Virus record (IMG/VR): IMGVR_UViG_3300012940_000085
Span: 1 to 29,046 of that record
DNA length: 29,046 nucleotides
Source: a virus
Lineage: Duplodnaviria > Caudoviricetes
Reading direction: 5' to 3' (one strand)
Under the pieces are notes generated by a model, which saw nothing but the letters and a program-made list of their open reading frames with translations, was not told the origin of the DNA and ran no database searches. Each line of letters starts with the position of its first letter. The first letter of the stretch is position 1. This document shows, piece by piece, positions 1,814-29,046 of the stretch. Made by a program: the position numbers and the translations under genes.

Positions 1814-2525
1814 TCACTCCATTTGCACCTGCGGAAAAATCTGTTGCATCTACATAAAATGATAGAGTTGAGCTAGTTATACGAACTTCAATTTGCGAGT
1901 AAAGTCCTTCCGTATAATCGGGCAGTAACGGTCTGCATATATTTGGTGATGATTGATGGAAAAACCAAGCCCGTACTCTTGGGATTTTCCCCAGATTGTG
2001 AGGAGGTACACTCACACTACCCGCTGCTCCAGAGGCAACAGATATAGGAATACTGCTTGGGATTGCTATTTTTTCATAATTATTCCTGGCATTAAGCGAA
2101 TACTTTTGTAGGGTTGGTTTCGGGGTGATTGGCTTAGCCATGACGTTCTTTGCGATGGCGAATAGTTCATACTGTATGGTATAAGATCTGCCTATTGAAT
2201 TTCCATAGTCATACCAACTGATGCCTTTTACATATACGTTATTTTCATCTATGTACGCGTTACAATCAGCAGTTTGAAACGCGGGAACTGATCCAGAAAA
2301 ATTAGGAGTCATGGATCCAAAATCGTTCCATGTATTCCCATTATTTGTAGTAAATCTTCCTTGGAAATACGCACTATCACCAAAATTATGTGCGTGCGGA
2401 TTTGTCGTACTACGAAATACATCAGAAGATGTTGGTGAACTAATAGTCATACTTCCTGTAAATATATCTATAATCTGGTCCATTTTATCGCCACCATAAT
2501 AGCGTAGTTTTGTTCTATCTATCAT
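1788..2525 (-). CDS. Tail tip / minor virion protein
   Basis: 245 aa, beta-rich, HNFG and HNLGKIP motifs typical of tail-associated domains; ATGA overlap with the upstream gene. Confidence 0.65.
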   Translation of the reverse strand: MIDRTKLRYYGGDKMDQIIDIFTGSMTISSPTSSDVFRSTTNPHAHNFGDSAYFQGRFTTNNGNTWNDFGSMTPNFSGSVPAFQTADCNAYIDENNVYVKGISWYDYGNSIGRSYTIQYELFAIAKNVMAKPITPKPTLQKYSLNARNNYEKIAIPSSIPISVASGAAGSVSVPPHNLGKIPRVRAWFFHQSSPNICRPLLPDYTEGLYSQIEVRITSSTLSFYVDATDFSAGANGVIEYRIYYD

Positions 2526-2794
2526 GGTGTTATGCCATCTTCTATGCTTTCTCCCTGATTTGCTGCTGCTGTAGTATATGATTTATCAGGCAGCCTTCCA
2601 GTACGTGTTTTTTCCTTGCCGCCATCAGTTGGGTCAAATGTCTTAAACCCATCACCATCAATCTGTCCTAAATGACCGCCTGTAGCTGAATCGCTTACCG
2701 CTATCCTATTTCTGCCCTGTTCAAAGCGCACTTTGCCATCAAGTGAAGATATTATCCTATTACCAGGTTGAGTAATTTTAGTAATGATTGCCAT
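2522..2794 (-). CDS. Small virion-associated hypothetical protein
   Basis: 90 aa ORF directly downstream of late motif copy 2 and coupled to the next gene. Confidence 0.65.
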   Translation of the reverse strand: MAIITKITQPGNRIISSLDGKVRFEQGRNRIAVSDSATGGHLGQIDGDGFKTFDPTDGGKEKTRTGRLPDKSYTTAAANQGESIEDGITP

Positions 2795-2805
2795 GTCTAC
2801 TTATT

Positions 2806-2821
2806 ATTATGGAGGGGCTGA
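2806..2821 (-). promoter_or_regulatory. Putative late promoter motif, copy 2
   Basis: Exact TCAGCCCCTCCATAAT, 11 nt upstream of the ATG at 2794 (same spacing as copy 1). Confidence 0.75.
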
Positions 2822-2822
2822 C

Positions 2823-2852
2823 TTGAGCCGCACTAAATAGACCTGCTATAAT
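2823..2852 (+). promoter_or_regulatory. Sigma70-type promoter for a small antisense RNA
   Basis: TTGAGC (2823-2828), 18 nt, extended -10 TGcTATAAT (2844-2852); no ORF downstream. Confidence 0.7.
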
Positions 2853-2858
2853 TAGTAG

Positions 2859-2910
2859 TAGGGTTTCAAGCGCAAACAAAGAGCACACCACTTGGTGGCT
2901 CTTTTGCTTT
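2859..2910 (+). ncRNA. Putative ~50-nt small RNA antisense to the anticodon arm of the adjacent tRNA
   Basis: Bounded by a promoter and an intrinsic terminator; 2861-2874 (GGGTTTCAAGCGCA) is identical to 2953-2966 and so is complementary to tRNA nt 27-40. Confidence 0.6.
2878..2910. terminator. Bidirectional intrinsic terminator
   Basis: AAAGAGC-A-CACCA-CT-TGGTG-GCTCTTT hairpin; TTTTGCTTT tail on plus, TTTGTTT tail on minus. Confidence 0.75.
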
Positions 2911-2917
2911 ATTTTGG

Positions 2918-2992
2918 TGGTGGAACTACGGAGAATCGAACTCCGATCTTGCGGGTTTCAAGCGCATGTAATAGCCGTTATACTATAGCCCC
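2918..2992 (-). tRNA. tRNA with GAA (Phe) anticodon and Ala-type acceptor stem
   Basis: GGGGCTA TA GTAT-AACGGCTA-TTAC A TGCGC-TTGAAAC-CCGCA AGAT CGGAG-TTCGATT-CTCCG TAGTTCC A CCA; 75-nt cloverleaf with G3:U70, G4:U69, A73 and a C31/C39 mismatch. Confidence 0.85.
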
Positions 2993-3035
2993 ATTGCAAG
3001 GGCACTACTAAAAAACATAATGCCTTATACTATTT

Positions 3036-3051
3036 ATTATGCTGGGGCTGA
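3036..3051 (-). promoter_or_regulatory. Putative late promoter motif, copy 3 (drives the tRNA)
   Basis: TCAGCCCCAGCATAAT (14/16) immediately after the stop at 3053, followed by AAATAGTA, a leader hairpin (3001-3024) and the tRNA. Confidence 0.7.
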
Positions 3052-3052
3052 A

Positions 3053-4609
3053 CTATGGTGCGAGCACATGGTCACCGTTAAGCTGCGAAAAATCAAGTTG
3101 AAACCATGTCCTGAGGTTATATCTCTTACACTTAAGTATCTGTGTAAATTTAGCGTCTTGAATTTTGTTTGTTATACCAATCACTCGATAATCTCCGGAA
3201 AATTCATCATAATCCACCTCAATAATGTCTGATAATTGGATAGCTGGATTGCCTTTTACTTCAATAGTGATGATATCGTTATACTCTGAATATTCATCCA
3301 ATATGGTTAGTGCAAGTGAATCAGCCTGTGACACTGATTGGATGAAGCTATTGTCAATCGTGAGGACTTTGTCTTCGTATTTTGCCACTGACTCGTCGTC
3401 ATAAGCTTCATATACTGTCGGTTCAACGCTAATTTGTTTTGCAGGTTGCCCCCATAAATAGAGCTGATCTATGTTAACAGAAAAACCATTTGTATTACTG
3501 AAGATGATGTCAAACGTATTTGTTTTTAGTTCAGTAGAAACAACTGAAACTCCTGAATTAACAGGTGTTCCATCCGGTAATGCTGCTGTAAACCATGACA
3601 CTCCTGCATTCTCGCCAAAATCTGGGTCTTCTATACTTAAACATGGATCGGATAACTGGGCTGGAAGCGTGTATGTACCACCAGCAGGCACAACATGAAG
3701 GGTAGTATCTGTATCTGTTTTTGAGTAAACAGGTTGATACTCTTGTACCTCCCTGACATCGGTATTAATGATGACATGGTTAATAATCTCATCGTCTTCA
3801 CTCGTTTCGAGACTATTTATGCTGTCATGGTCGAAATAATATACTGGATCATCTGGCTGCTCTAACCTTGGACGGAACTTGATAATACCTTGCTCATCAA
3901 GCCATAGCATACCCATTTCAGCCTGCATTAAAGGGCGGATTATATCGCCAGCTGTTACTTGTTCTCGCTCAAAAAATAAGAAAGGTATCTTATTCCTACC
4001 TTTTGCAAGGTCATACTGGTCGGGTGTGAGGCCAAATTGTTCAAACACGTTAGCAAGTACTTCACCTGTATAAACGTCCTGCATGGCAATTGTATTCCTA
4101 ATTGGCATATCGTATATCCATGTCAGGAAATCCATTGCCGTAAACGTCGCTGTACCATCTATACGACTGATTTCTGGCATACCCTCGGTAAGGCCTACGA
4201 ATTGCGGTAGAACAGTATTATTGAAGCCTTGAAGCAGCCTAACTGGTCTCTTAGGCAATATGAAGTTAGATATTGGCGAACCAGAATTTGGGGTAAAGTA
4301 CTTATCGTAGTTATTTAGTTGGAAGTCAGCAATAGCAGACACGACCGAGTAGGGAAACTCAAGGCTTCGTTCTACTGACATGTAATTGAGCCGTTCAGAA
4401 TAATCCTGGTACTCATACTGCGACCAAGGAAGCAACGGGTTATCTTCTGCTACTCCAAGTACGTCATTACCGTTTAGTATTGATTGATCGAGCGTGAACC
4501 AATCAATATCGGGGTCGTATTGTTTATCAAATGATATATAGCTGCCCCAAGTAATTAGGCGCATATCTCCATTTGCTAGTTGATTAAATTGAGGGGAAAC
4601 CGCTTGCAT
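3053..4609 (-). CDS. Tail tip / baseplate hub (Tal-like) protein
   Basis: 518 aa, second gene after the tape measure; EMGMLWLDEQGIIKFRPR and GNPAIQLSDIIEV segments typical of hub proteins. Confidence 0.75.
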   Translation of the reverse strand: MQAVSPQFNQLANGDMRLITWGSYISFDKQYDPDIDWFTLDQSILNGNDVLGVAEDNPLLPWSQYEYQDYSERLNYMSVERSLEFPYSVVSAIADFQLNNYDKYFTPNSGSPISNFILPKRPVRLLQGFNNTVLPQFVGLTEGMPEISRIDGTATFTAMDFLTWIYDMPIRNTIAMQDVYTGEVLANVFEQFGLTPDQYDLAKGRNKIPFLFFEREQVTAGDIIRPLMQAEMGMLWLDEQGIIKFRPRLEQPDDPVYYFDHDSINSLETSEDDEIINHVIINTDVREVQEYQPVYSKTDTDTTLHVVPAGGTYTLPAQLSDPCLSIEDPDFGENAGVSWFTAALPDGTPVNSGVSVVSTELKTNTFDIIFSNTNGFSVNIDQLYLWGQPAKQISVEPTVYEAYDDESVAKYEDKVLTIDNSFIQSVSQADSLALTILDEYSEYNDIITIEVKGNPAIQLSDIIEVDYDEFSGDYRVIGITNKIQDAKFTQILKCKRYNLRTWFQLDFSQLNGDHVLAP

Positions 4610-7541: not shown

Positions 7542-7949
7542 TTAGTCTATAACCTCTGCTTTATCAGTAAATGGCTTCATGCCATTGTTGAACGACGTTC
7601 CAGGGCTTTTGCTGTACGTAGATGCATGAGCTACGAGGTTCCCGTGTGACTGTTCGATTACTTTTGAATACCAGACTTTCCTTGCTCCTTCAAGTAATAC
7701 CAATGCTTCATCAAGCGTGAATGGTTCTTTGATTGTCTTACCATATGCGTCAAGCTTTTCAATGTATCCTCGCTTAATAGCAAGCACGCCATCCCAGCCG
7801 AAGTAATACCCAAATTCTGCAACCATATAAATTTCCGGTGATACATCAAGACCTTTTCTGGTACGCTGACGCTCTAGGCGCTTACGCCCACGATCAATGG
7901 CTTTCTTGCGCTCATTTTCAGGCAACAGATCAAGAATTGACTTGCTCAT
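7542..7949 (-). CDS. Tail assembly chaperone (second, pre-TMP)
   Basis: Directly upstream of the TMP; AAGGA SD 8 nt before the ATG at 7949. Confidence 0.6.
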   Translation of the reverse strand: MSKSILDLLPENERKKAIDRGRKRLERQRTRKGLDVSPEIYMVAEFGYYFGWDGVLAIKRGYIEKLDAYGKTIKEPFTLDEALVLLEGARKVWYSKVIEQSHGNLVAHASTYSKSPGTSFNNGMKPFTDKAEVID

Positions 7950-8400
7950 CAATGTCTTCCTTTTCTTCTGGTTTTACTGATCCTGGCGTATCAATTTGTT
8001 TTGTTTTCCCAAATACAATCTTGAATAATTTCGCACGCTCTGTGTCAGTTAAAGTATTCATTATCACGTCAACAACTCTACCGTCACTATCATCAGACAT
8101 GCATCTTTTGTATGTTTCAAATTCAAATTTCTTTATTTCGCTCAATTCTTCTGATAGTGATTCGGCTTTTTTTGTAAGTTTATTTATTTTCTTAAGGTCT
8201 TCTGGTTTGCTCGGATTATATTTTGTGAAGTCAAGAGCGCTAAGTTCGTCGATTACCTTACCCAAACGCCTGAGTTTACGAGACAAGTCTAATTCTTCAC
8301 CTGCGCCCATTCGACGCACCTTAAGAGTTCCAACGCCCTCAATATTCACTGTTTTAATATTCTGTATATTATTCAGTGCAACGTTTACATCAGCTTCCAT
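7930..8400 (-). CDS. Tail assembly chaperone (first)
   Basis: Between major tail and TMP; AGGAGG SD supports the ATG at 8400 (MEADVN...). Confidence 0.65.
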   Translation of the reverse strand: MEADVNVALNNIQNIKTVNIEGVGTLKVRRMGAGEELDLSRKLRRLGKVIDELSALDFTKYNPSKPEDLKKINKLTKKAESLSEELSEIKKFEFETYKRCMSDDSDGRVVDVIMNTLTDTERAKLFKIVFGKTKQIDTPGSVKPEEKEDIDEQVNS

Positions 8401-8453
8401 ATAACCCTCCTGGATTATCAATGCTCTCGCACATATTATGTTTCCTACTATTA

Positions 8454-8469
8454 ATTATGGAGGGGCTGA
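8454..8469 (-). promoter_or_regulatory. Putative late promoter motif, copy 4
   Basis: Exact motif followed by TAATAGTAGG; positioned to restart late transcription after the 9136-9164 terminator. Confidence 0.75.
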
Positions 8470-8472
8470 GTG

Positions 8473-8497
8473 TGCTATAATCATCTGCAAATAGGAG
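8473..8497 (+). promoter_or_regulatory. Extended -10 promoter and SD for the membrane-protein moron
   Basis: TGcTATAAT (8473-8481) and AGGAG (8493-8497) before the ATG at 8502. Confidence 0.65.
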
Positions 8498-8501
8498 TAT
8501 T

Positions 8502-8795
8502 ATGGATAAGGATCAAGCTAACCAAGTTCTCACAGAAACACTTAACGGCTCTACCGCATCAGATGATTCATCGGCTGCTATTATCATGGTTTCAGTAGTA
8601 ATATGGTTTGTACTGTCAATGATTATGGGATTCGTAGCTTCAGCGATAGCAAACTACAACGAAAGAAGGCAAGTTCATGCTTTTTTTGCGGGATTCTTTC
8701 TTGGTCCGCTAGGTGTGATTGCTTATATGATAATGGGTGAATCTATTGATCTTAGAGTGCGGCTTGAGCAAAAAGCATTAAAGAAAATCAAATGA
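8502..8795 (+). CDS. Small membrane protein (moron), paralog of the next gene
   Basis: Two hydrophobic segments; AFFAGFFLGPLGVIAY; promoter and SD present. Confidence 0.8.
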   Translation: MDKDQANQVLTETLNGSTASDDSSAAIIMVSVVIWFVLSMIMGFVASAIANYNERRQVHAFFAGFFLGPLGVIAYMIMGESIDLRVRLEQKALKKIK

Positions 8796-9118
8796 TGCTG
8801 CGCAACATGAGTCATAAAGTAGACAACCCATATCAAACCAAGCAAATAGTCGTCGCGATAGCAATGATTGGTTTTACTGCGTTTTTAGTTAGTAGATTAT
8901 CTGTTGGCTGGGCATTGCTGTGGCTTGCGTCCTACCTTGTATGGGCTATTGTATGTGCTGATATGGCTAAGCGTAGAGGCAGGTCGCTTGCTGGTGGAAT
9001 AGTTGGCGGATATTATTTTGGTTTCTTGGCTATTTTTTACTATCTAATTGCTGGGGATTCGGTTGAAATGAGAGTAATTAAGGAAGAAGAAGCTAGGCGT
9101 AAGCACCATATCAGTTGA
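8792..9118 (+). CDS. Small membrane protein (moron)
   Basis: Three hydrophobic segments; MAKRRGRS...GYYFGFLAIFYY; ATGA overlap with the previous gene. Confidence 0.8.
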   Translation: MMLRNMSHKVDNPYQTKQIVVAIAMIGFTAFLVSRLSVGWALLWLASYLVWAIVCADMAKRRGRSLAGGIVGGYYFGFLAIFYYLIAGDSVEMRVIKEEEARRKHHIS

Positions 9119-13480: not shown

Positions 13481-13557
13481 GTTTAATCCTTTTATTAAAA
13501 TTTGTAGAACACTCCCTTGCGTTCTTAGTGAACTTTGCTTGTTCGGTCCTACTATTA

Positions 13558-13573
13558 ATTATGGAGAGGCTGA
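13558..13573 (-). promoter_or_regulatory. Putative late promoter motif, copy 5 (overlaps the portal stop)
   Basis: TCAGCCTCTCCATAAT followed by TAATAGTAGG; the portal TAA lies inside CATAAT. Confidence 0.75.
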
Positions 13574-15001
13574 GATTAGTGGTACTGCTAACACCTTGCA
13601 ACTACTGTTCCCACACTTATCTTTATCTGCGTAGTCTTTGTTGGTCGTCATGCCTAGGAACCTGTCACATTTAGCGCAGTGACGCTCGTATTCGACTTCG
13701 TTCAGAGGTGTAACACCATCTATCTTTGATGGGTCAGGCGCTCCATCTACCTCACCGCCTTCATCAACTTCAGGCTTATCATTATCTATAGTGGCTGCTC
13801 CGCTTCCGAGCTTAAGTAACTTGTAAGATTGAGATAATTGCAAAGCATCAACAGCACTATCAAGGCTGTACCCCATATCCATAAGATCCTTAATCATGGC
13901 TACTTCTTCGCGTTTGGTCTTGGCCTTAACTAATTCCGCATCAGAAACAGCGGGAATCTCATACTTGAACGTAATTGCTGCCCCTAAACCTCCAGTAATG
14001 CGGTTGAGTTCATGGGTAATCTGTGAATATATACGTAGTGCAAGAGGCTTTACAGCTCTCTTGGCAAATCCATTCTCAGATACTTCAGCGTTAGAATATT
14101 TAGCCGAACTATCGACTCCCTTAATGATTGATGAGACACCATAAGATTCAGATAATCGATTATCAACATGCTTAAGTAATGGGTCGAAATCAATCTCTTT
14201 GTTTGTTTGTGCAAATGGTATCCATTCAACTTGTGCGGGAGCCTGATTACCTTGTTGGTCAATAGGAACGTGTGTATAGGAAACGTTATTGTTATTTCCA
14301 GCACCCCTGTGCCGCTCTTGAAGCTTTGCAACCATATCCTTGTATTCTGGTACGCTTGGGGCTGCTACCTTAAATACGCCAGCCGGTATTGCGTTGTTTT
14401 CAAAGAAACCGTTTTGGAAATCTGCTATATGCCCGTCGAGCGTAGCCCACTTAGCAGCGGATAGATATGGCGAGTAGCCACCGTATAGGTTGCCTGGTTT
14501 TGCTCCTCCGGGAATTGCTATTACTTCATCTTCAGTAAACTCTTGAGCACCAATTTTGTAGTAGATTTTCCCATCACGATATTCAATTCCTGGGCACTCC
14601 AGGAAAGTGTAACCTGCGATATTCTTGCCTTTAAACCCAAACTCACCGCCTGGTTTTGCTACGCCACCTTCATTACGCCATACGAGCAGGTAAGTGTAGT
14701 CTTGGGCGAGCACAGACACGCCGAGCTTTTCCATAAATAGTGGCAGACTATCTCTCTTGTTCGGGTGAAATAATGCATCTAACGCCGCATGTGGCACAGG
14801 TTTCCCGTTGCCATTGATTGCATAAGGAACAATCCCCATGAGTTCATTAGTGATTGGCCTAACATTCGGATAGTGACTGGCGTATTTGTCAGATTTGTAA
14901 TGGTTGTATAGACCGTATGGGTTTACCTGAGCAAAACTAGGTGCACCTACAAGGTTCACTTGAGAATTTACGCCTTTGATGGCTGTACCGAGTATATTCA
15001 C
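13559..15001 (-). CDS. Portal protein (HK97-like) with C-terminal zinc ribbon
   Basis: GYSPY, FFENNAIPAGV, SYGVSSIIKG...KYSNAE, AVKPL motifs; between terL and the protease/capsid gene. Confidence 0.9.
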   Translation of the reverse strand: MNILGTAIKGVNSQVNLVGAPSFAQVNPYGLYNHYKSDKYASHYPNVRPITNELMGIVPYAINGNGKPVPHAALDALFHPNKRDSLPLFMEKLGVSVLAQDYTYLLVWRNEGGVAKPGGEFGFKGKNIAGYTFLECPGIEYRDGKIYYKIGAQEFTEDEVIAIPGGAKPGNLYGGYSPYLSAAKWATLDGHIADFQNGFFENNAIPAGVFKVAAPSVPEYKDMVAKLQERHRGAGNNNNVSYTHVPIDQQGNQAPAQVEWIPFAQTNKEIDFDPLLKHVDNRLSESYGVSSIIKGVDSSAKYSNAEVSENGFAKRAVKPLALRIYSQITHELNRITGGLGAAITFKYEIPAVSDAELVKAKTKREEVAMIKDLMDMGYSLDSAVDALQLSQSYKLLKLGSGAATIDNDKPEVDEGGEVDGAPDPSKIDGVTPLNEVEYERHCAKCDRFLGMTTNKDYADKDKCGNSSCKVLAVPLISASP

Positions 15002-15186: not shown

Positions 15187-15214
15187 CCCAGTAATTCCTT
15201 TAGTTCTATATATA

Positions 15215-15230
15215 ATTATGGAGGGGCTGA
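15215..15230 (-). promoter_or_regulatory. Putative late promoter motif, copy 6
   Basis: Exact motif immediately after the terL stop. Confidence 0.75.
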
Positions 15231-15231
15231 A

Positions 15232-16437
15232 CTATAGGAGACCGCCGTACTCTATAGGTCTGAAGTTTAGCGCTCGATTCAGTAGTGCCAACGCCATAAC
15301 CTCATCATCGTGAAACCCCTCTGGAGCTGAATAGCTAAATTGCCCATTTGAGCGTTGTTCATAGGCATATAGAGCTAACTCATCTGTTAAGGTTTCTATT
15401 TTGGGATAGCTGATGTTCTGATTGTCCATAGCAATAGAGAGGTTACTAACTAACTCTTGCTTAGTAGTAGAGGTGAACTTAAAGCCCTCTAAATTCAGCC
15501 CTGCGTTTTGTAAATCGTCAAAGATTCCATCACCTACCCCTGTCGCATCGATAACGCCGCTCATGCACTTAAACTTCTGGTATGCGGATATAATGCGGCT
15601 CTTTTGCAAACCCCAATCTATCTGATTAAACCTGTCATGGTATACAACCTGTCGCTTCTCCACATCGGCTACCATAATTACTGTGAAGTCAGTATGTTTC
15701 GCTAGGTCAGCAGATAAGACATACCTACGCCCTACAATAGGTGAATCTAATAACTCACCACTTATATTCTCAAGAATATTACGAAATACTGCGCCCGCCC
15801 CATCGATAAACTCCGCTAATATCTCTTGCCTAAATGCCTCTTGGGTCATAGTGCGCTTTGCTTCTTCGATTTCCTTTTCCGTCCAAAATGGCGAATCATA
15901 AGCACTGAATGAATAATGCTGGTACTGGTGGTAAAGACTTTCAAACTTATTCTTTCCTTTTGGGGTACCGATAAGACGAGTGCGGGCATGCTTAATCATC
16001 GGATATATCGTGTTATCCCATAGCTTGGCTTTCTTAAGAACAATACCCGCCTCGTTTATAACAGCCGCATCATACCCAAACCCCTCAAGCAGTTCTGGGC
16101 GTTCAGCACTACCAAAATCAATAGTATTCCCGTTCCAAAGTGTAAGTATCTTTTTTTGTTGATTCCATTTGCAGTCTTGCCAATAATTCATCCTGATAAG
16201 TGTTGGCTTGAAATACCGCTCAATATACTTATCGATATTAGATTGCGTTGTGTCTATCCATAGTCCACGCTTGAGTTGGCCGTCCTCTTTTAGTTGGTCA
16301 AGCTCTTGCACTTCCCAGGTTACGAAATTCTTAGTTTTACCGGTTCGGCGCCCAGCTTTGATTGCAACTATAGGACTAGTGTCTTTGTATGCCTCCTTTA
16401 AAAAGGATGGTATGACCAAGCGTGTCTTCTGTTCCAT
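15232..16437 (-). CDS. terL: Terminase large subunit
   Basis: AGRRTGKT Walker A, AVINEAG Walker B, IGTPKG motif III, RNase H-like SADLAKHTDFT, IDATGVG and HDDEVMALAL. Confidence 0.95.
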   Translation of the reverse strand: MEQKTRLVIPSFLKEAYKDTSPIVAIKAGRRTGKTKNFVTWEVQELDQLKEDGQLKRGLWIDTTQSNIDKYIERYFKPTLIRMNYWQDCKWNQQKKILTLWNGNTIDFGSAERPELLEGFGYDAAVINEAGIVLKKAKLWDNTIYPMIKHARTRLIGTPKGKNKFESLYHQYQHYSFSAYDSPFWTEKEIEEAKRTMTQEAFRQEILAEFIDGAGAVFRNILENISGELLDSPIVGRRYVLSADLAKHTDFTVIMVADVEKRQVVYHDRFNQIDWGLQKSRIISAYQKFKCMSGVIDATGVGDGIFDDLQNAGLNLEGFKFTSTTKQELVSNLSIAMDNQNISYPKIETLTDELALYAYEQRSNGQFSYSAPEGFHDDEVMALALLNRALNFRPIEYGGLL

Positions 16438-16943: not shown

Positions 16944-16976
16944 AGGTTAAAAAATCTAAAAACCTTCCTACTATAT

Positions 16977-16992
16977 ATTGTAGCTAGGGTGA
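16977..16992 (-). promoter_or_regulatory. Degenerate late promoter motif, copy 7, ahead of terS
   Basis: TCACCCTAGCTACAAT followed by ATATAGTAGG, the same spacing and downstream TAGTAGG as copies 4 and 5. Confidence 0.5.
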
Positions 16993-16996
16993 GATT

Positions 16997-17547: not shown

Positions 17548-18516
17548 TTATACCCCTAATAAACCGATAAGTTTATCTTTACTTACCCTTGCAATCCCAT
17601 ACTTACAGTCCCGTATCCCGAATGAGATAAGCAGATCGCCATTATGCTCAACCATCCCTGCAGCAAACTCAATATTTTCATGAGTACCGAATCTGAACGG
17701 TCTGCTAAGATGAGTTACTATTCCTTCTCTATCGTGTCTAGCGAGGTAATGCCTGTAAATATACTTATCGTAGATATTCTGAGTACGAACTAATCTCAAT
17801 GAAGAATCAATAACTTTGTCATGGACGACGCTTATATATGTTCCATCTTCTTGAAGAAGAAGCTGTGAACCCCCGTGTATGATCCCATCGTACTTAACAC
17901 CTAAAATGTGACCTCCTTGCCAAACTTGTGTTGGAGAATAGGTAAATTCAAAATAAGCTGTTTCTTCGTCAGGTGGTGACCAATTCTTTTCTACTAGGTT
18001 TGTATCAGGTTTTTGAAGCGTTCTAATATACTGTAGCGTGTCGCCCCTAATGACGTATTCAGCCAGTGAGGCAGAAGCATTATGCAGCGACCTGGTGAGC
18101 CTATCAGATTCAAAGCCAATAGCGTGCATACCATCTTTTCTTGAGAATAGGCGTACATCTTCCAGCCCTGCGGTGAGTATTGTATTCGGGGAATCATTAC
18201 TAAGCTTGAGCTTTTGCAAGTTTGATACCAATAGCGTTTCAGGGTCTAAATCACCATATAATACATCTGTCTTAGAATATGCGCTGCCATCCCTGAAATA
18301 CCATTTGCCGCGTCTTTCAACAGCAAAGTTACAACTTCTAATAGCAATTTTTAATATTCCGTTGTGCCACGCAATTGAAGGGTTAAAATATCGCATTGCA
18401 GGATCGTCTATTTCCCCGTAAATGCGGAGTTCTGTATCAAGTTCCTGGAGGTCTATCGTCTCAACCACACTTGGTCTTGTATTGCTTCGCCCCATTCGTT
18501 CTCTAGTGCGGTACAT
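17548..18516 (-). CDS. Five-bladed beta-propeller glycoside hydrolase/phosphorylase-like protein (GH130/GH43 clan)
   Basis: FNPSI, GLEDVRLF, EKNWSP, HGGSQ, IEFAAGM, ISFGIRD motifs; true start is probably a GTG near 18466-18469. Confidence 0.75.
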   Translation of the reverse strand: MYRTRERMGRSNTRPSVVETIDLQELDTELRIYGEIDDPAMRYFNPSIAWHNGILKIAIRSCNFAVERRGKWYFRDGSAYSKTDVLYGDLDPETLLVSNLQKLKLSNDSPNTILTAGLEDVRLFSRKDGMHAIGFESDRLTRSLHNASASLAEYVIRGDTLQYIRTLQKPDTNLVEKNWSPPDEETAYFEFTYSPTQVWQGGHILGVKYDGIIHGGSQLLLQEDGTYISVVHDKVIDSSLRLVRTQNIYDKYIYRHYLARHDREGIVTHLSRPFRFGTHENIEFAAGMVEHNGDLLISFGIRDCKYGIARVSKDKLIGLLGV

Positions 18517-19109
18517 ATATAACCCCTTTCCTGCATGAATAATGCTATATCTAAATTAGTTTTATCTCTCGCTACGCCTTCAATCTCTGTCTCTAGGTGA
18601 AATACTCGGACATTTCTGAGGTATTTGCCCAGCCCCTCCAGCGCCTCCCAGGTATAGTGCTCTATATCAATTTTCATAATATCTATCTCAGTATTTTGGT
18701 GGCCGAGTTCTTTTATGACATCATCAAGGCGGCGGGTTGCAACTTTGATGGTGATCGTATCTTTAACCCATGGTTCATTCGCCCGATTGAGGTTCATGCT
18801 GCTGGAGCCAACCATATTGTTGTCACCATGTATTTGCAAGAATTCAGCTTTACCCTTTTTGTTAGATATTGCTTCAGTGATGAGTATAGCTTTAGGGTAA
18901 TTCTGTTTTATTACTTCAACTTGAGGGGGGTTACACTCGAATAGGACTATATCTGCATCATCCCAAAGCCTTTGACCGTCATAGATGCGTTGTGCGAGTT
19001 CTTCACCATCTTTGCCGTCTCTGCTGCCTACTTCGTATACCACTGGATTTTTTGTCAGCCCGAAATTATCCGTATAGGTTTTTACAGCTGTATGGAGCCA
19101 TTTATTCAC
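18453..19109 (-). CDS. FkbM family SAM-dependent methyltransferase
   Basis: VYEVGSRDG, LFECNP, AISNKKG, RRLDDV, DIMKIDIE. Confidence 0.88.
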   Translation of the reverse strand: MNKWLHTAVKTYTDNFGLTKNPVVYEVGSRDGKDGEELAQRIYDGQRLWDDADIVLFECNPPQVEVIKQNYPKAILITEAISNKKGKAEFLQIHGDNNMVGSSSMNLNRANEPWVKDTITIKVATRRLDDVIKELGHQNTEIDIMKIDIEHYTWEALEGLGKYLRNVRVFHLETEIEGVARDKTNLDIALFMQERGYICTALENEWGEAIQDQVWLRR

Positions 19110-19326
19110 AATCTAAAACTCCTCGCATAACATCTGAACCTGATACAACCTCATTGCTTGTCAGCTTATATACATTTTCGCCATCAACAACACATATTTC
19201 TTGAATGCCGTATTTGGAACCATATATTAGAATATTCTCCCTTTCCCGTTGCGCTGATGGCTCAGTTGTAGGTACTAAGATGTCCTTTCCTGCGTGTATA
19301 AATCTGAACCATAAATCATCTTTCAT
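19102..19326 (-). CDS. Hypothetical protein
   Basis: Overlap-coupled ORF inside the glycan cassette. Confidence 0.6.
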   Translation of the reverse strand: MKDDLWFRFIHAGKDILVPTTEPSAQRERENILIYGSKYGIQEICVVDGENVYKLTSNEVVSGSDVMRGVLDCE

Positions 19327-19970
19327 ATCCTATACTCCTTATATTCTTTAGATGTTTTCGATTTCTTATACCGATCTCGGTTATTTATGAGGTTATTGCG
19401 CCTAACTTCTGGTGATATTGAACTAGCAATACTGGAATCTTGATCAAGGCAATATATAAGCTTATCGCTGTTCACTACATCCATAGCCCTGTATGTGGTC
19501 AAACCTGCGTTATGGATTCGATTTGTCCAGTCTGTGTGTTCATACATTGCTTGTCCATACTCGGTATCCATGCCGCCGACAACATCTAACACTCTCCGTT
19601 CAACATAGAGCATCGCTCCTCTAGTGTGAGAATAAGCAACTATTTCATCATCCCGGTATAATTCACGCATATCTGATGCTGGCTTCCCAGGTAGTTTGAA
19701 TTGGTACATAAGATGAGGTTCTTTGGATTCAACGTATGGCTTCCACCATTCCTTAGATATGGGCCAGCAGTCATCATCGAAAAGGAAAATATCAGTGCAT
19801 CCTTCATCATATAAATATGATAAGCATCGGTTTTTTGTAATAGCTACACCAGTATACCCAAAGTCATTAATAACAATACCTGCCGAATTATTTGGTATAT
19901 ATCCTTCCCACCTTGCTGTGTCATAAGGCGTACGTTTTGGGGTAGTGCTTATACCGATACCGATCTTCAT
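19323..19970 (-). CDS. Glycosyltransferase, GT-A fold (GT2-like)
   Basis: KIGIGISTT, GVAITKNRCL, IFLFDDDCWP (DxD), VGGMD...YEHTDW. Confidence 0.85.
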   Translation of the reverse strand: MKIGIGISTTPKRTPYDTARWEGYIPNNSAGIVINDFGYTGVAITKNRCLSYLYDEGCTDIFLFDDDCWPISKEWWKPYVESKEPHLMYQFKLPGKPASDMRELYRDDEIVAYSHTRGAMLYVERRVLDVVGGMDTEYGQAMYEHTDWTNRIHNAGLTTYRAMDVVNSDKLIYCLDQDSSIASSISPEVRRNNLINNRDRYKKSKTSKEYKEYRI

Positions 19971-20581
19971 ATTTTGCTCCGTATATATTCCCCAATAGGC
20001 TGCCTTTTGAACGACAACTCGGTGGTACTAAGGTATGTCTTACTCTCAAAATCCTTGACGTTTTTTACGTCATCCATACACTCGCCACCAACGTCATAAG
20101 TATTTCCATAATATGAACGAATAAGGGGACATTTCCTGTGTTCTATACTTGTTTCAAGCTCCTGAATAATGTTATGTAGTTTCTCTTTATTGAAAAGAAA
20201 CGGTATGTGCAGTTCATAGGAAAGACCACTGCCCAACCTATCACGAGTCTCGATTATTGCTCTGGTATAGCTATCCCTAGAGTGCCTCGACGCAATATGT
20301 TCGTCTAAAGTACCCCTATGCGCGTATTGTGTCTCTGGCACTGGATTCAAAACAAAGAAATCATCGTTAAATAAATAGAAATCATCGGTTAAGTCAAGAT
20401 TATCTATAGCCCATTTCAGCTTCATAATCTGGTCGATATGAGAGGCATACCTATATGGTGATCTATCGTGCTGCTCAACGACGTGTATGTTTCTATGCGG
20501 AAAGTTCTTATTAATTAGTGCAAGGCATGCCTCTAGTTCACCAGAGGAGTTTTTGATATAAGGGATTACGATATCATTCAT
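19967..20581 (-). CDS. Stealth-like / GT-A sugar-phosphotransferase-like protein
   Basis: DIVIPY, ELEACLALI, DDFYLFNDDFF and YELHIP resemble Stealth conserved regions. Confidence 0.6.
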   Translation of the reverse strand: MNDIVIPYIKNSSGELEACLALINKNFPHRNIHVVEQHDRSPYRYASHIDQIMKLKWAIDNLDLTDDFYLFNDDFFVLNPVPETQYAHRGTLDEHIASRHSRDSYTRAIIETRDRLGSGLSYELHIPFLFNKEKLHNIIQELETSIEHRKCPLIRSYYGNTYDVGGECMDDVKNVKDFESKTYLSTTELSFKRQPIGEYIRSKI

Positions 20582-28691: not shown

Positions 28692-29046
28692 TTCACCTCC
28701 ACAAATTCACCGGCCTGAAGCATGTAGAATGTGTTGGCCTTGATTTTCTTGCCATCAACTTTTACGGTTTGTACATCAATACGTTTCCAGCCATATTTTG
28801 CCCGGCCATCTCGTTTCCATTCTGCAAGAGTAATCCAACCACCTTTTTTAGCGCGAGCCTTACCTTCGATACCGACCGATATAGCTACACCTTCAACACC
28901 AGTGTTGGTAGCTGCTGAGTAGTCACCAGTGTTGGTAGCTGCAGATTGGTAACCAGTGTTGGTAGCTGCTGAGTAGTCACCAGTGTTGGTAGCTGCAGAT
29001 CGTCCACCAGTGTTGGTAGCTGCAGATTGGTAACCAGTGTTGGTAG
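28688..29046 (-). CDS. C-terminus of nonapeptide-repeat phage protein (DUF7666-like), 5' end off the right edge
   Basis: Manual translation (SAATNTGxx)n-VEGVAISVGIEGKARAKKGGWITLAEW...VDGKKIKANTFYMLQAGEFVEVK*; stop overlaps the ATG at 28691. Confidence 0.85.
   Translation of the reverse strand, partial: TNTGYQSAATNTGGRSAATNTGDYSAATNTGYQSAATNTGDYSAATNTGVEGVAISVGIEGKARAKKGGWITLAEWKRDGRAKYGWKRIDVQTVKVDGKKIKANTFYMLQAGEFVEVK
28897..29046. repeat. 27-bp coding tandem repeat (about 5.5 units, truncated by the edge)
   Basis: ACCAGTGTTGGTAGCTGC core every 27 nt, encoding SAATNTG(YQ/DY/GR). Confidence 0.9.

Follow-up and report, generated by a model that had tools for sequence, protein, structure and literature searches.

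A phage tRNA with an alanine-type body and a phenylalanine anticodon, paired with a predicted antisense RNA in a recurrent two-RNA module

A tRNA gene and an adjacent copy of its anticodon-arm sequence, from which an antisense small RNA is predicted to be transcribed, form a recurrent two-RNA module and not a pseudogene. We found the pair in a 29,046-nucleotide phage contig (hereafter the window, meaning this whole stretch), and the same pairing recurs, with matched changes in both partners, in bacteria, archaea and phages. Judging from sequence, we hold it probable, with considerable room for doubt, that the cassette is an RNA-only toxin-antitoxin module in which a Phe-to-Ala mistranslating tRNA is blocked by the antisense RNA. 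We incline only slightly to the wider proposal of an undescribed type of toxin-antitoxin system, needing no protein and widespread among bacteria, archaea and phages, in which an AlaRS-charged tRNA with the wrong anticodon would be masked by a small RNA, arm swaps would give rise to new pairs, and the pairs would serve in abortive-infection defence.

The tRNA gene and its predicted antisense partner

The cassette and its flanks comprise the following features (window coordinates, strand, basis).

2918-2992 (-): tRNA gene with a tRNA-Ala body (G3:U70, G4:U69, A73, encoded CCA) and a GAA anticodon; predicted toxin (ARAGORN, Rfam, folding, comparison)
2953-2966 (-): tRNA positions 27-40, i.e., the 5' anticodon-stem strand, the loop with GAA at 2959-2957, C39 and C40; complemented by the small RNA (14-nt exact match)
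2861-2874 (+): 5' part of the small RNA, 14 nt, complementary to tRNA 27-40 at every base (sequence match, comparison with homologues)
2823-2852 (+): sigma70-type promoter match, 10 of 12, with a TG-extended -10 box; predicted start ~2859-2860 (promoter search)
2859-2915 (+): predicted ~55-nt antisense small RNA; predicted antitoxin (folding z -3.6, pairing energy)
2878-2904 (either strand): hairpin flanked on either side by T-rich runs; predicted to terminate in both directions, for tRNA and small RNA alike (terminator call on the minus strand, folding)
3025-3055 (-): phage repeat copy, putatively late-promoter-like, overlapping the tail gene stop and ~40 nt before the tRNA (repeat family, 7 copies)
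2795-2825 (-): second copy of that repeat, before the 90-aa gene, which would restart transcription past the cassette terminator (repeat family)
3053-4609 (-): minor tail protein gene, upstream flank of the insertion (annotation, comparison with relatives)
2522-2794 (-): 90-aa gene, downstream flank of the insertion (comparison with relatives)

ARAGORN called a tRNA-Phe(GAA) at 2918-2992 on the minus strand, the sole tRNA gene in the 29-kb window, and Rfam RF00005 matched it with 54.1 bits (cut-off 29). The tRNA is a 7/5 cloverleaf with a short variable loop. Its acceptor stem is made of G1:C72, G2:C71, G3:U70, G4:U69, C5:G68, U6:A67 and A7:U66, followed by A73 and an encoded CCA. The anticodon stem consists of U27:A43, G28:C42, C29:G41 and G30:C40, C31 faces C39, and the loop reads U32-U33-G34-A35-A36-A37-C38. 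This anatomy (G1:C72, G2:C71, G3:U70, G4:U69, A73 and the GAA loop) had been described in an initial annotation and was borne out by ARAGORN, Rfam and our own reading; folding likewise confirmed its claim that the C31/C39 mismatch opens a 9-nt anticodon loop. A UGA (Ser) register with a 2-nt bulge was rejected, as it folds 4.4 kcal/mol worse than GAA (+1.9 versus -2.5) and lies off the register of the homologues. The tRNA leader (2993-3024, minus strand) could form a hairpin of its own or, in a shorter transcript, pair with the first bases of the tRNA; this is not conserved in the homologous cassettes L343 and L344.

The initial annotation had also proposed a chimera of an Ala body and a Phe anticodon, and comparison upheld this. 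Viral matches to the first 25 nt of the tRNA were all tRNA-Ala(UGC) genes in phage tRNA arrays (15/15). Likeness at the 5' end follows from the construction of the query; the 3' part, which was unselected, is alike at 25 of 29 positions and includes one compensated T-stem pair. The anticodon arm is alike at only 4 of 17 positions, yet its four pairs are kept. Since the 3' part agrees and the anticodon arm does not, the tRNA is an Ala body carrying a different anticodon arm.

G1:C72, G2:C71 and A73 are supporting AlaRS elements. All three are present together with G3:U70, and the Ala anticodon (NGC) is replaced by GAA. G3:U70 is the major AlaRS determinant and, when put into a plant tRNA-Phe, makes it an AlaRS substrate (PMC9976931). 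Conserved PheRS elements are G34, A35, A36 and A73, with U20 and U59 in E. coli (PMC9976931); here G34, A35, A36, A73 and U59 are present, and position 20 is C, followed by U. Because these elements stand beside G3:U70, both amino acids are probably loaded, and charging by both AlaRS and PheRS is likely. The tRNA is identical to Saccharibacteria tRNA-Phe at 40-42 of 73 positions, with an unlike acceptor. Housekeeping tRNA-Phe of two Saccharibacteria genomes carries C3:G70, which goes against the possibility, raised in the initial annotation, that G3:U70 is simply normal for tRNA-Phe of the host lineage.

A G3:U70 tRNA with a non-Ala anticodon is also the signature expected of codon reassignment, as in Ashbya mitochondria, where CUU/CUA are read as Ala through such a tRNA (PMC7609411). 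The same reading here, with UUU/UUC meaning Ala in phage or host, has a negligible probability. In the phage it was refuted: 20 of 20 terminase columns at Phe codons have a Phe majority in 102 homologues (91% Phe, 0.7% Ala), so the target codons align to Phe and not to Ala. Genomes carrying the module moreover keep a normal tRNA-Phe. Since phage Phe codons are not recoded, a GAA tRNA charged with Ala would mistranslate.

The antisense partner had been overlooked in the initial annotation. The 14 bases of the anticodon arm (2953-2966) recur as a direct repeat at 2861-2874, a match reached in 1 of 300 whole-window shuffles; no other match to the arm in the 29-kb window, itself a partial contig, exceeds 9 nt, the next best being 9 nt on the other strand. 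The complement begins ~8 nt past the -10 box and is followed by a hairpin and a U-run. Sigma70-type matches by themselves are common in the window (15 found, 9.1 expected); a -10-like box lies at the same place in L343 and L344. Predicted pairing of the small RNA with its own tRNA reaches -17.6 kcal/mol, against -3.7 and -5.0 kcal/mol with Saccharibacteria tRNA-Phe and 0 with phage tRNA-Ala. No ORF of at least 50 aa was found within 2795-3019, the 258-bp cassette holds no toxin ORF, and an Rfam search of 2780-3070 returned no family but tRNA. The sequence predicts two adjacent RNA genes, tRNA and small RNA, without a toxin protein.

Recurrence and co-variation of the pair

The homologue L343 shares its layout, its GAA anticodon and the C31-C39 mismatch with the window cassette. 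Its stem pairs 27:43 and 30:40 are swapped relative to the window, and each of the four differences within tRNA 27-40 reappears in its second copy. L344 has a GAA-to-GAU change that its second copy likewise reflects; this copy departs from its own tRNA at two positions. The C31-C39 mismatch was found in 4/5 high-scoring GAA tRNAs among the matches listed and is for that reason a family trait and not decay. With stems compensated and this mismatch held in common, the random decay of homologues that the initial annotation had considered does not apply.

To survey the family, viral, genome and metagenome collections were scanned for tRNAs combining G1-G2-G3/U70-C71-C72-A73 with an A or U as base 35; the genome and metagenome matches listed came out of an estimated ~460 and ~1200 stretches. 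Loci were kept if they had 6 or more acceptor pairs, flanks of 150 nt or longer to both sides and an arm of unique sequence, other tRNAs being masked, which left 97/152 (viral and genome, window included) and 73/119 (metagenome) of the matches listed. Among these, a complement scoring at least 13 within 300 nt was present in 29/97 and 16/73 loci, compared with 3/97 and 1/73 for a D-arm control, 1/97 and 1/73 for a T-arm control, and 0/1164 and 4/876 for arms set against the flanks of other loci. The loci are partly related, several being Acidobacteria and Nitrosopumilus relatives. Among the matches listed, a terminator followed the complement in 26/36 and 21/22 loci scoring at least 12 versus 6/54 and 7/44 low scorers, and a -10 box preceded it in 23/36 and 13/22 versus 8/54 and 4/44. 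High scorers came from Saccharibacteria, other Patescibacteria, Acidobacteria, Chloroflexota, Actinomycetota, Gammaproteobacteria, Nitrosopumilus, Pacearchaeota and phages.

The DNA layouts were of four kinds (convergent, divergent, tandem up and tandem down), so that the copy is a direct repeat at some loci and an inverted one at others; it is always complementary as RNA. Among the matches listed, the whole anticodon is covered in 54/55 complements, and 51/56 tRNAs pair best with their own small RNA. Anticodons of partnered tRNAs are mostly those of Asp, Ile, Phe, Leu and Val. A purine occupies position 34 in 38/42 well-registered high scorers versus 24/65 low scorers; 25/42 of these high scorers have a stem mismatch, which falls at 31-39 in 13/42 versus 8/65 low scorers (all among the matches listed). 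In a subfamily (L135, L150, L196, L212, L227, L230, L352, L400, L417, L423, L426), mostly Patescibacteria where named, the small RNA lies ~65-135 nt upstream of the tRNA and is complementary to the loop plus the 3' strand. A further segment that matches the 5' strand is present in L426 and others, which suggests that strands are exchanged with the entire anticodon stem; whether the anticodon reads GAC or UGA is ambiguous in this subfamily.

A single Nitrosopumilus genome (G003) yielded 58 tRNA-model matches. Fifteen picked regions of it held 8 intact modules (5 GAA, 3 AAG) and one decayed tRNA with an intact partner (L337). These loci (L328, L329, L331, L334-L337, L340 and L341), some of which carry G32 or C33, include several that adjoin IS66, IS110, IS1595 or DDE_3 transposases.

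These data bear directly on the reading of the cassette as a pseudogene or a DNA-level repeat (duplication, att site, operator or assembly artefact), which we regard as highly improbable and which the scans, layouts and co-variation have already largely refuted. The plain 14-bp direct repeat of the window and the decayed copy in G003 are what such a reading would lead one to expect. Stems are compensated, however, and the copy sits at a predicted transcription start; since the copy at other loci is an inverted repeat with G-U pairs, RNA pairing is the only sensible reading. An att site in particular was rejected, as the second copy lacks a tRNA 3' remnant and only ~80 bp separate the copies.

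Ordinary tRNAs behaved differently from the partnered ones. None of 59 ordinary phage tRNA-Phe genes (kept of 121 loci) or 80 tRNA-Asp genes (kept of 122) reached a partner score of 11, and G3:U70 occurred in 0/139 of them. Of 102 tRNA calls in two Saccharibacteria genomes and one Nitrosopumilus genome (best 30 loci each), only 3 scored at least 13, all G3:U70 tRNAs with GAA. With a loose GAA pattern, 58 loci were obtained from viral contigs, most of them not tRNAs and 0 with a partner; Ala-body patterns gave 2 loci with G35, neither partnered, and 19 viral loci with C35, 14 of which were kept, 0/14 with a partner. Since G3:U70 was part of the search pattern of the family scans, modules of other identity entered the sample through the controls alone. 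Because an anticodon-covering RNA was found only beside G3:U70 non-Ala tRNAs, the small RNA is most simply an antitoxin.

A low score (<10), i.e., no detected partner, was obtained for 54/97 and 44/73 G3:U70 non-Ala tRNAs among the matches listed, and this majority of partnerless tRNAs speaks against the toxin reading, as do the 14 partnerless Ala-body tRNAs with C35. They include the GAA tRNAs L127, L128, L140, L191 and L429, for which a gapped longer-range search gave nothing convincing; a gapped search of 19 partnerless tRNAs added two plausible cases only, L345 and L169. Some partnerless tRNAs are probably damaged housekeeping tRNAs, and others look intact. Three further groups were noted. 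Phage tRNAs with a CUA anticodon and G3:U70 (L082, L084, L091, L106; ~1001-1076), in or near tRNA clusters, have no antisense partner and are possible Ala-inserting amber suppressors. UCU (Arg) G3:U70 tRNAs (L080, L083, L707, L711, L715, L157, L210), often isolated and with no partner detected, form a separate class of Ala-body chimera. Bacteroidota-type G3:U70 tRNAs (L117, L133, L140, L165, L182, L404), with GUC, GAA or GAU, have no nearby partner; L140 comes from a complete Flavobacterium genome.

The same pairing could operate on a tRNA that is not a decoding toxin: the tRNA might be a tRNA-shaped antisense regulator of the P1 C4 or P4 CI kind, the short transcript being its target leader or a sponge, or might be toxic by ribosome stalling or frameshifting through the open loop. 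We rate this as improbable, although it deserves more weight than any other rival. The frequent stem mismatches and the copies with G32 or C33 are in its favour. A regulator is hard to reconcile with tRNA being the only Rfam match over 2780-3070, with the lack of any other match above 9 nt in the partial 29-kb contig, and with read-through in the window entering no sense gene. Partners found only with G3:U70 tRNAs point to charging, which weighs against both variants. Attenuation was rejected: among the matches listed, the terminator forms without the tRNA in 37/45 small RNAs, so no switch is seen.

Module neighbourhoods share no single context. Among 136 neighbour ORFs in Pfam, many were IS transposases, a few were PIN, HicB, DUF4258, others were housekeeping and most were unnamed. 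Housekeeping genes, and not defence islands, surround the two closest cellular homologues, a further point against the toxin reading. The initial annotation had suggested instead a decoy for anticodon nucleases or an Ala donor for non-ribosomal transfer, and we now consider either very unlikely. The open anticodon loop would suit a decoy, and phage tRNAs can counter tRNA-cleaving defences (PMC12409363). Neither role needs a cognate antisense RNA, however, which would be left unexplained; cellular genomes also carry the module, and no aminoacyl transferase was present among annotated neighbours.

Proposed mechanism and comparison with known systems

In the toxin-antitoxin reading that we favour, both RNAs would be expressed from the cassette. 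Host AlaRS would charge the tRNA with Ala through G3:U70, and the charged tRNA would place Ala at UUU/UUC codons unless the small RNA, pairing over the anticodon, blocked this mistranslation. Upon loss of the element, or when a phage shuts off host transcription, the small RNA, taken to be the shorter-lived, would decay first and release the stable tRNA, leading to addiction of a lysogen or to abortive infection. Release by faster antitoxin decay, with addiction or abortive infection as the outcome, is known toxin-antitoxin logic. Strand invasion would be easier through the open C31-C39 loop, which may also damp decoding; the possibly poor decoding of a 9-nt loop counts against the toxin reading. 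Swapping the anticodon arm along with the matching 12-20 nt would generate new, mutually specific pairs, so that one genome could stack many of them. Missense suppression by allo-tRNAs kills E. coli (PMC5389517). Toxicity here could be mild, given the intact PheRS elements and the tolerance of E. coli for as much as 10% mismade protein (PMC9976931).

If the proposal is correct, the cassette would be a natural tRNA under the control of its own dedicated antisense RNA, and a toxin-antitoxin system made from ~260 bp of non-coding DNA that annotation labels simply as tRNA-Phe, -Asp, -Ile or -Leu. It would give a role to natural 'wrong-anticodon' tRNAs, for which none is known according to PMC11415595, and would warn that such tRNAs are no evidence of recoding. 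Programmable kill switches and switchable suppressor tRNAs are possible uses.

In type I and type III toxin-antitoxin systems the toxin is a protein, and the antitoxin, a small antisense RNA or another RNA, has a promoter and terminator of its own and is often convergent; prophage morons are cassettes inserted between tail genes. The window cassette resembles these in its small antisense RNA with own promoter and terminator and in its insertion between tail genes, and differs from type I and III systems in that their toxins are proteins and its 258 bp hold no toxin ORF. P1/P7 C4 and P4 CI are tRNA-like phage antisense RNAs that pair with a nearby short sequence. There is no Rfam match to C4 or CI here, and the window RNA is a full tRNA with CCA and AlaRS marks; C4 and CI control a downstream gene by termination, whereas no regulated gene lies downstream of the complement.

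TADB 3.0 describes two validated type VIII kinds, CreTA and SdsR-RyeA (PMC10767807). Both set an RNA toxin and an RNA antitoxin side by side, on the same or opposite strands, as is the case here (PMC10767807, PMC8501985). In CreTA, CreT sequesters a tRNA and CreA represses CreT transcription via CRISPR effectors; here the predicted toxin is the tRNA itself, and no cas gene was found among 41 window proteins scanned against PHROGs. In SdsR-RyeA the genes overlap on opposite strands, whereas here a non-overlapping small RNA pairs over the tRNA anticodon. From its sequence, the cassette would resemble a type VIII system in its working, and it is neither of these.

Allo-tRNAs have Ser or Ala identity (some with G3:U70) and mismatched anticodons, GUC and UAU being common, and in these respects are like the window tRNA; they have been found near toxin-antitoxin genes (PMC5389517, PMC7609411). 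They differ in their 8/4 or 9/3 acceptor branch, the window tRNA being a canonical 7/5 molecule with a short variable loop. The tRNA-ProX/ProRSx pairs of Streptomyces offer another likeness, as natural dual-identity tRNAs that mistranslate and harm E. coli, and odd anticodon-loop bases of tRNA-ProX are thought to damp decoding (PMC11415595). In contrast to the window tRNA, with Ala identity, G34 and no synthetase in the window, tRNA-ProX has Pro identity, A34 and a co-encoded ProRSx. The word 'antisense' has 0 matches in the main texts of PMC5389517 (whose supplements show allo-tRNA loci), PMC11415595 and PMC7609411, and a literature search covering mainly openly accessible papers turned up no account of a tRNA matched by an antisense RNA of its own.

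Insertion in the phage genome

The window is a 29-kb phage contig whose minus strand encodes the terminase, portal, head and tail proteins. The genes flanking the cassette are 258 nt apart here and 8-16 nt apart in 5/5 related phages (58-79% tail protein identity); the cassette is absent from all five, and no tRNA was found in those records. An integrase is present in 2/5 relatives and 1/5 is classed as a provirus, indicating that the phage group is temperate; no tRNA lies near the relatives' integrases. Searching annotated phage records with the cassette gave partial tRNA matches only (0/91 cover 80%).

Saccharibacteria are a likely host, because the closest cassettes (L343, L344) and tail-protein relatives are found there. 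Such relatives occurred in 5/401 Saccharimonadia-class genomes, at 29-42% identity. By contrast, the only taxon-named terminase matches (P0033, P0074; 69-71% identity) lay in multi-megabase Actinobacteria records named Streptomyces and Prescottella, although the phage has ~41% GC.

On either side of the cassette lies a copy of a repeat that occurs seven times in the window, ahead of structural genes (782-812, 2795-2825, 3025-3055, 8443-8473, 13547-13577, 15204-15234 and 16966-16996). The repeat also occurs in the relatives L074 and L076, and the copy before the 90-aa gene is absent at that site in L074-L078. It is likely a late promoter, with one copy after each inserted plus-strand cassette. 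From its position and the late-promoter-like repeat upstream, expression of the tRNA late in infection is plausible, and a place on the late strand would be odd for a toxin.

Late expression would suit a tunable switch for beneficial mistranslation, in which the small RNA would hold Phe-to-Ala (or Asp-, Ile-, Leu- or Val-to-Ala) substitution at a low level that diversifies proteins, for example late tail proteins, instead of killing. The position of cellular copies between housekeeping genes and the likely double charging, which would dilute errors, also agree with such a switch. The spread of the module is patchy, however (3/401 Saccharimonadia-class genomes carry it), many copies lie in one genome beside transposases, and the anticodons are directed against core hydrophobic and acidic amino acids. 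These points fit a selfish or defensive toxin better, and we consider the beneficial switch doubtful, somewhat more so than a regulatory or stalling role.

Other features of the window were recorded alongside. Plus-strand moron-like genes at 904-1392 and 8502-9118 have no PHROG or Pfam match; a sigma70-type match (870-897) precedes the first, and another strong match (1479-1506) has no obvious gene. Two overlapping minus-strand ORFs (7542-8421) lie before the tape measure gene, the usual site of the tail chaperone frameshift. Glycosyltransferase and methyltransferase matches before the terminase genes (17548-20581, minus strand) possibly serve DNA or virion modification. At 28870-29046, a 27-nt tandem repeat runs off the contig end.
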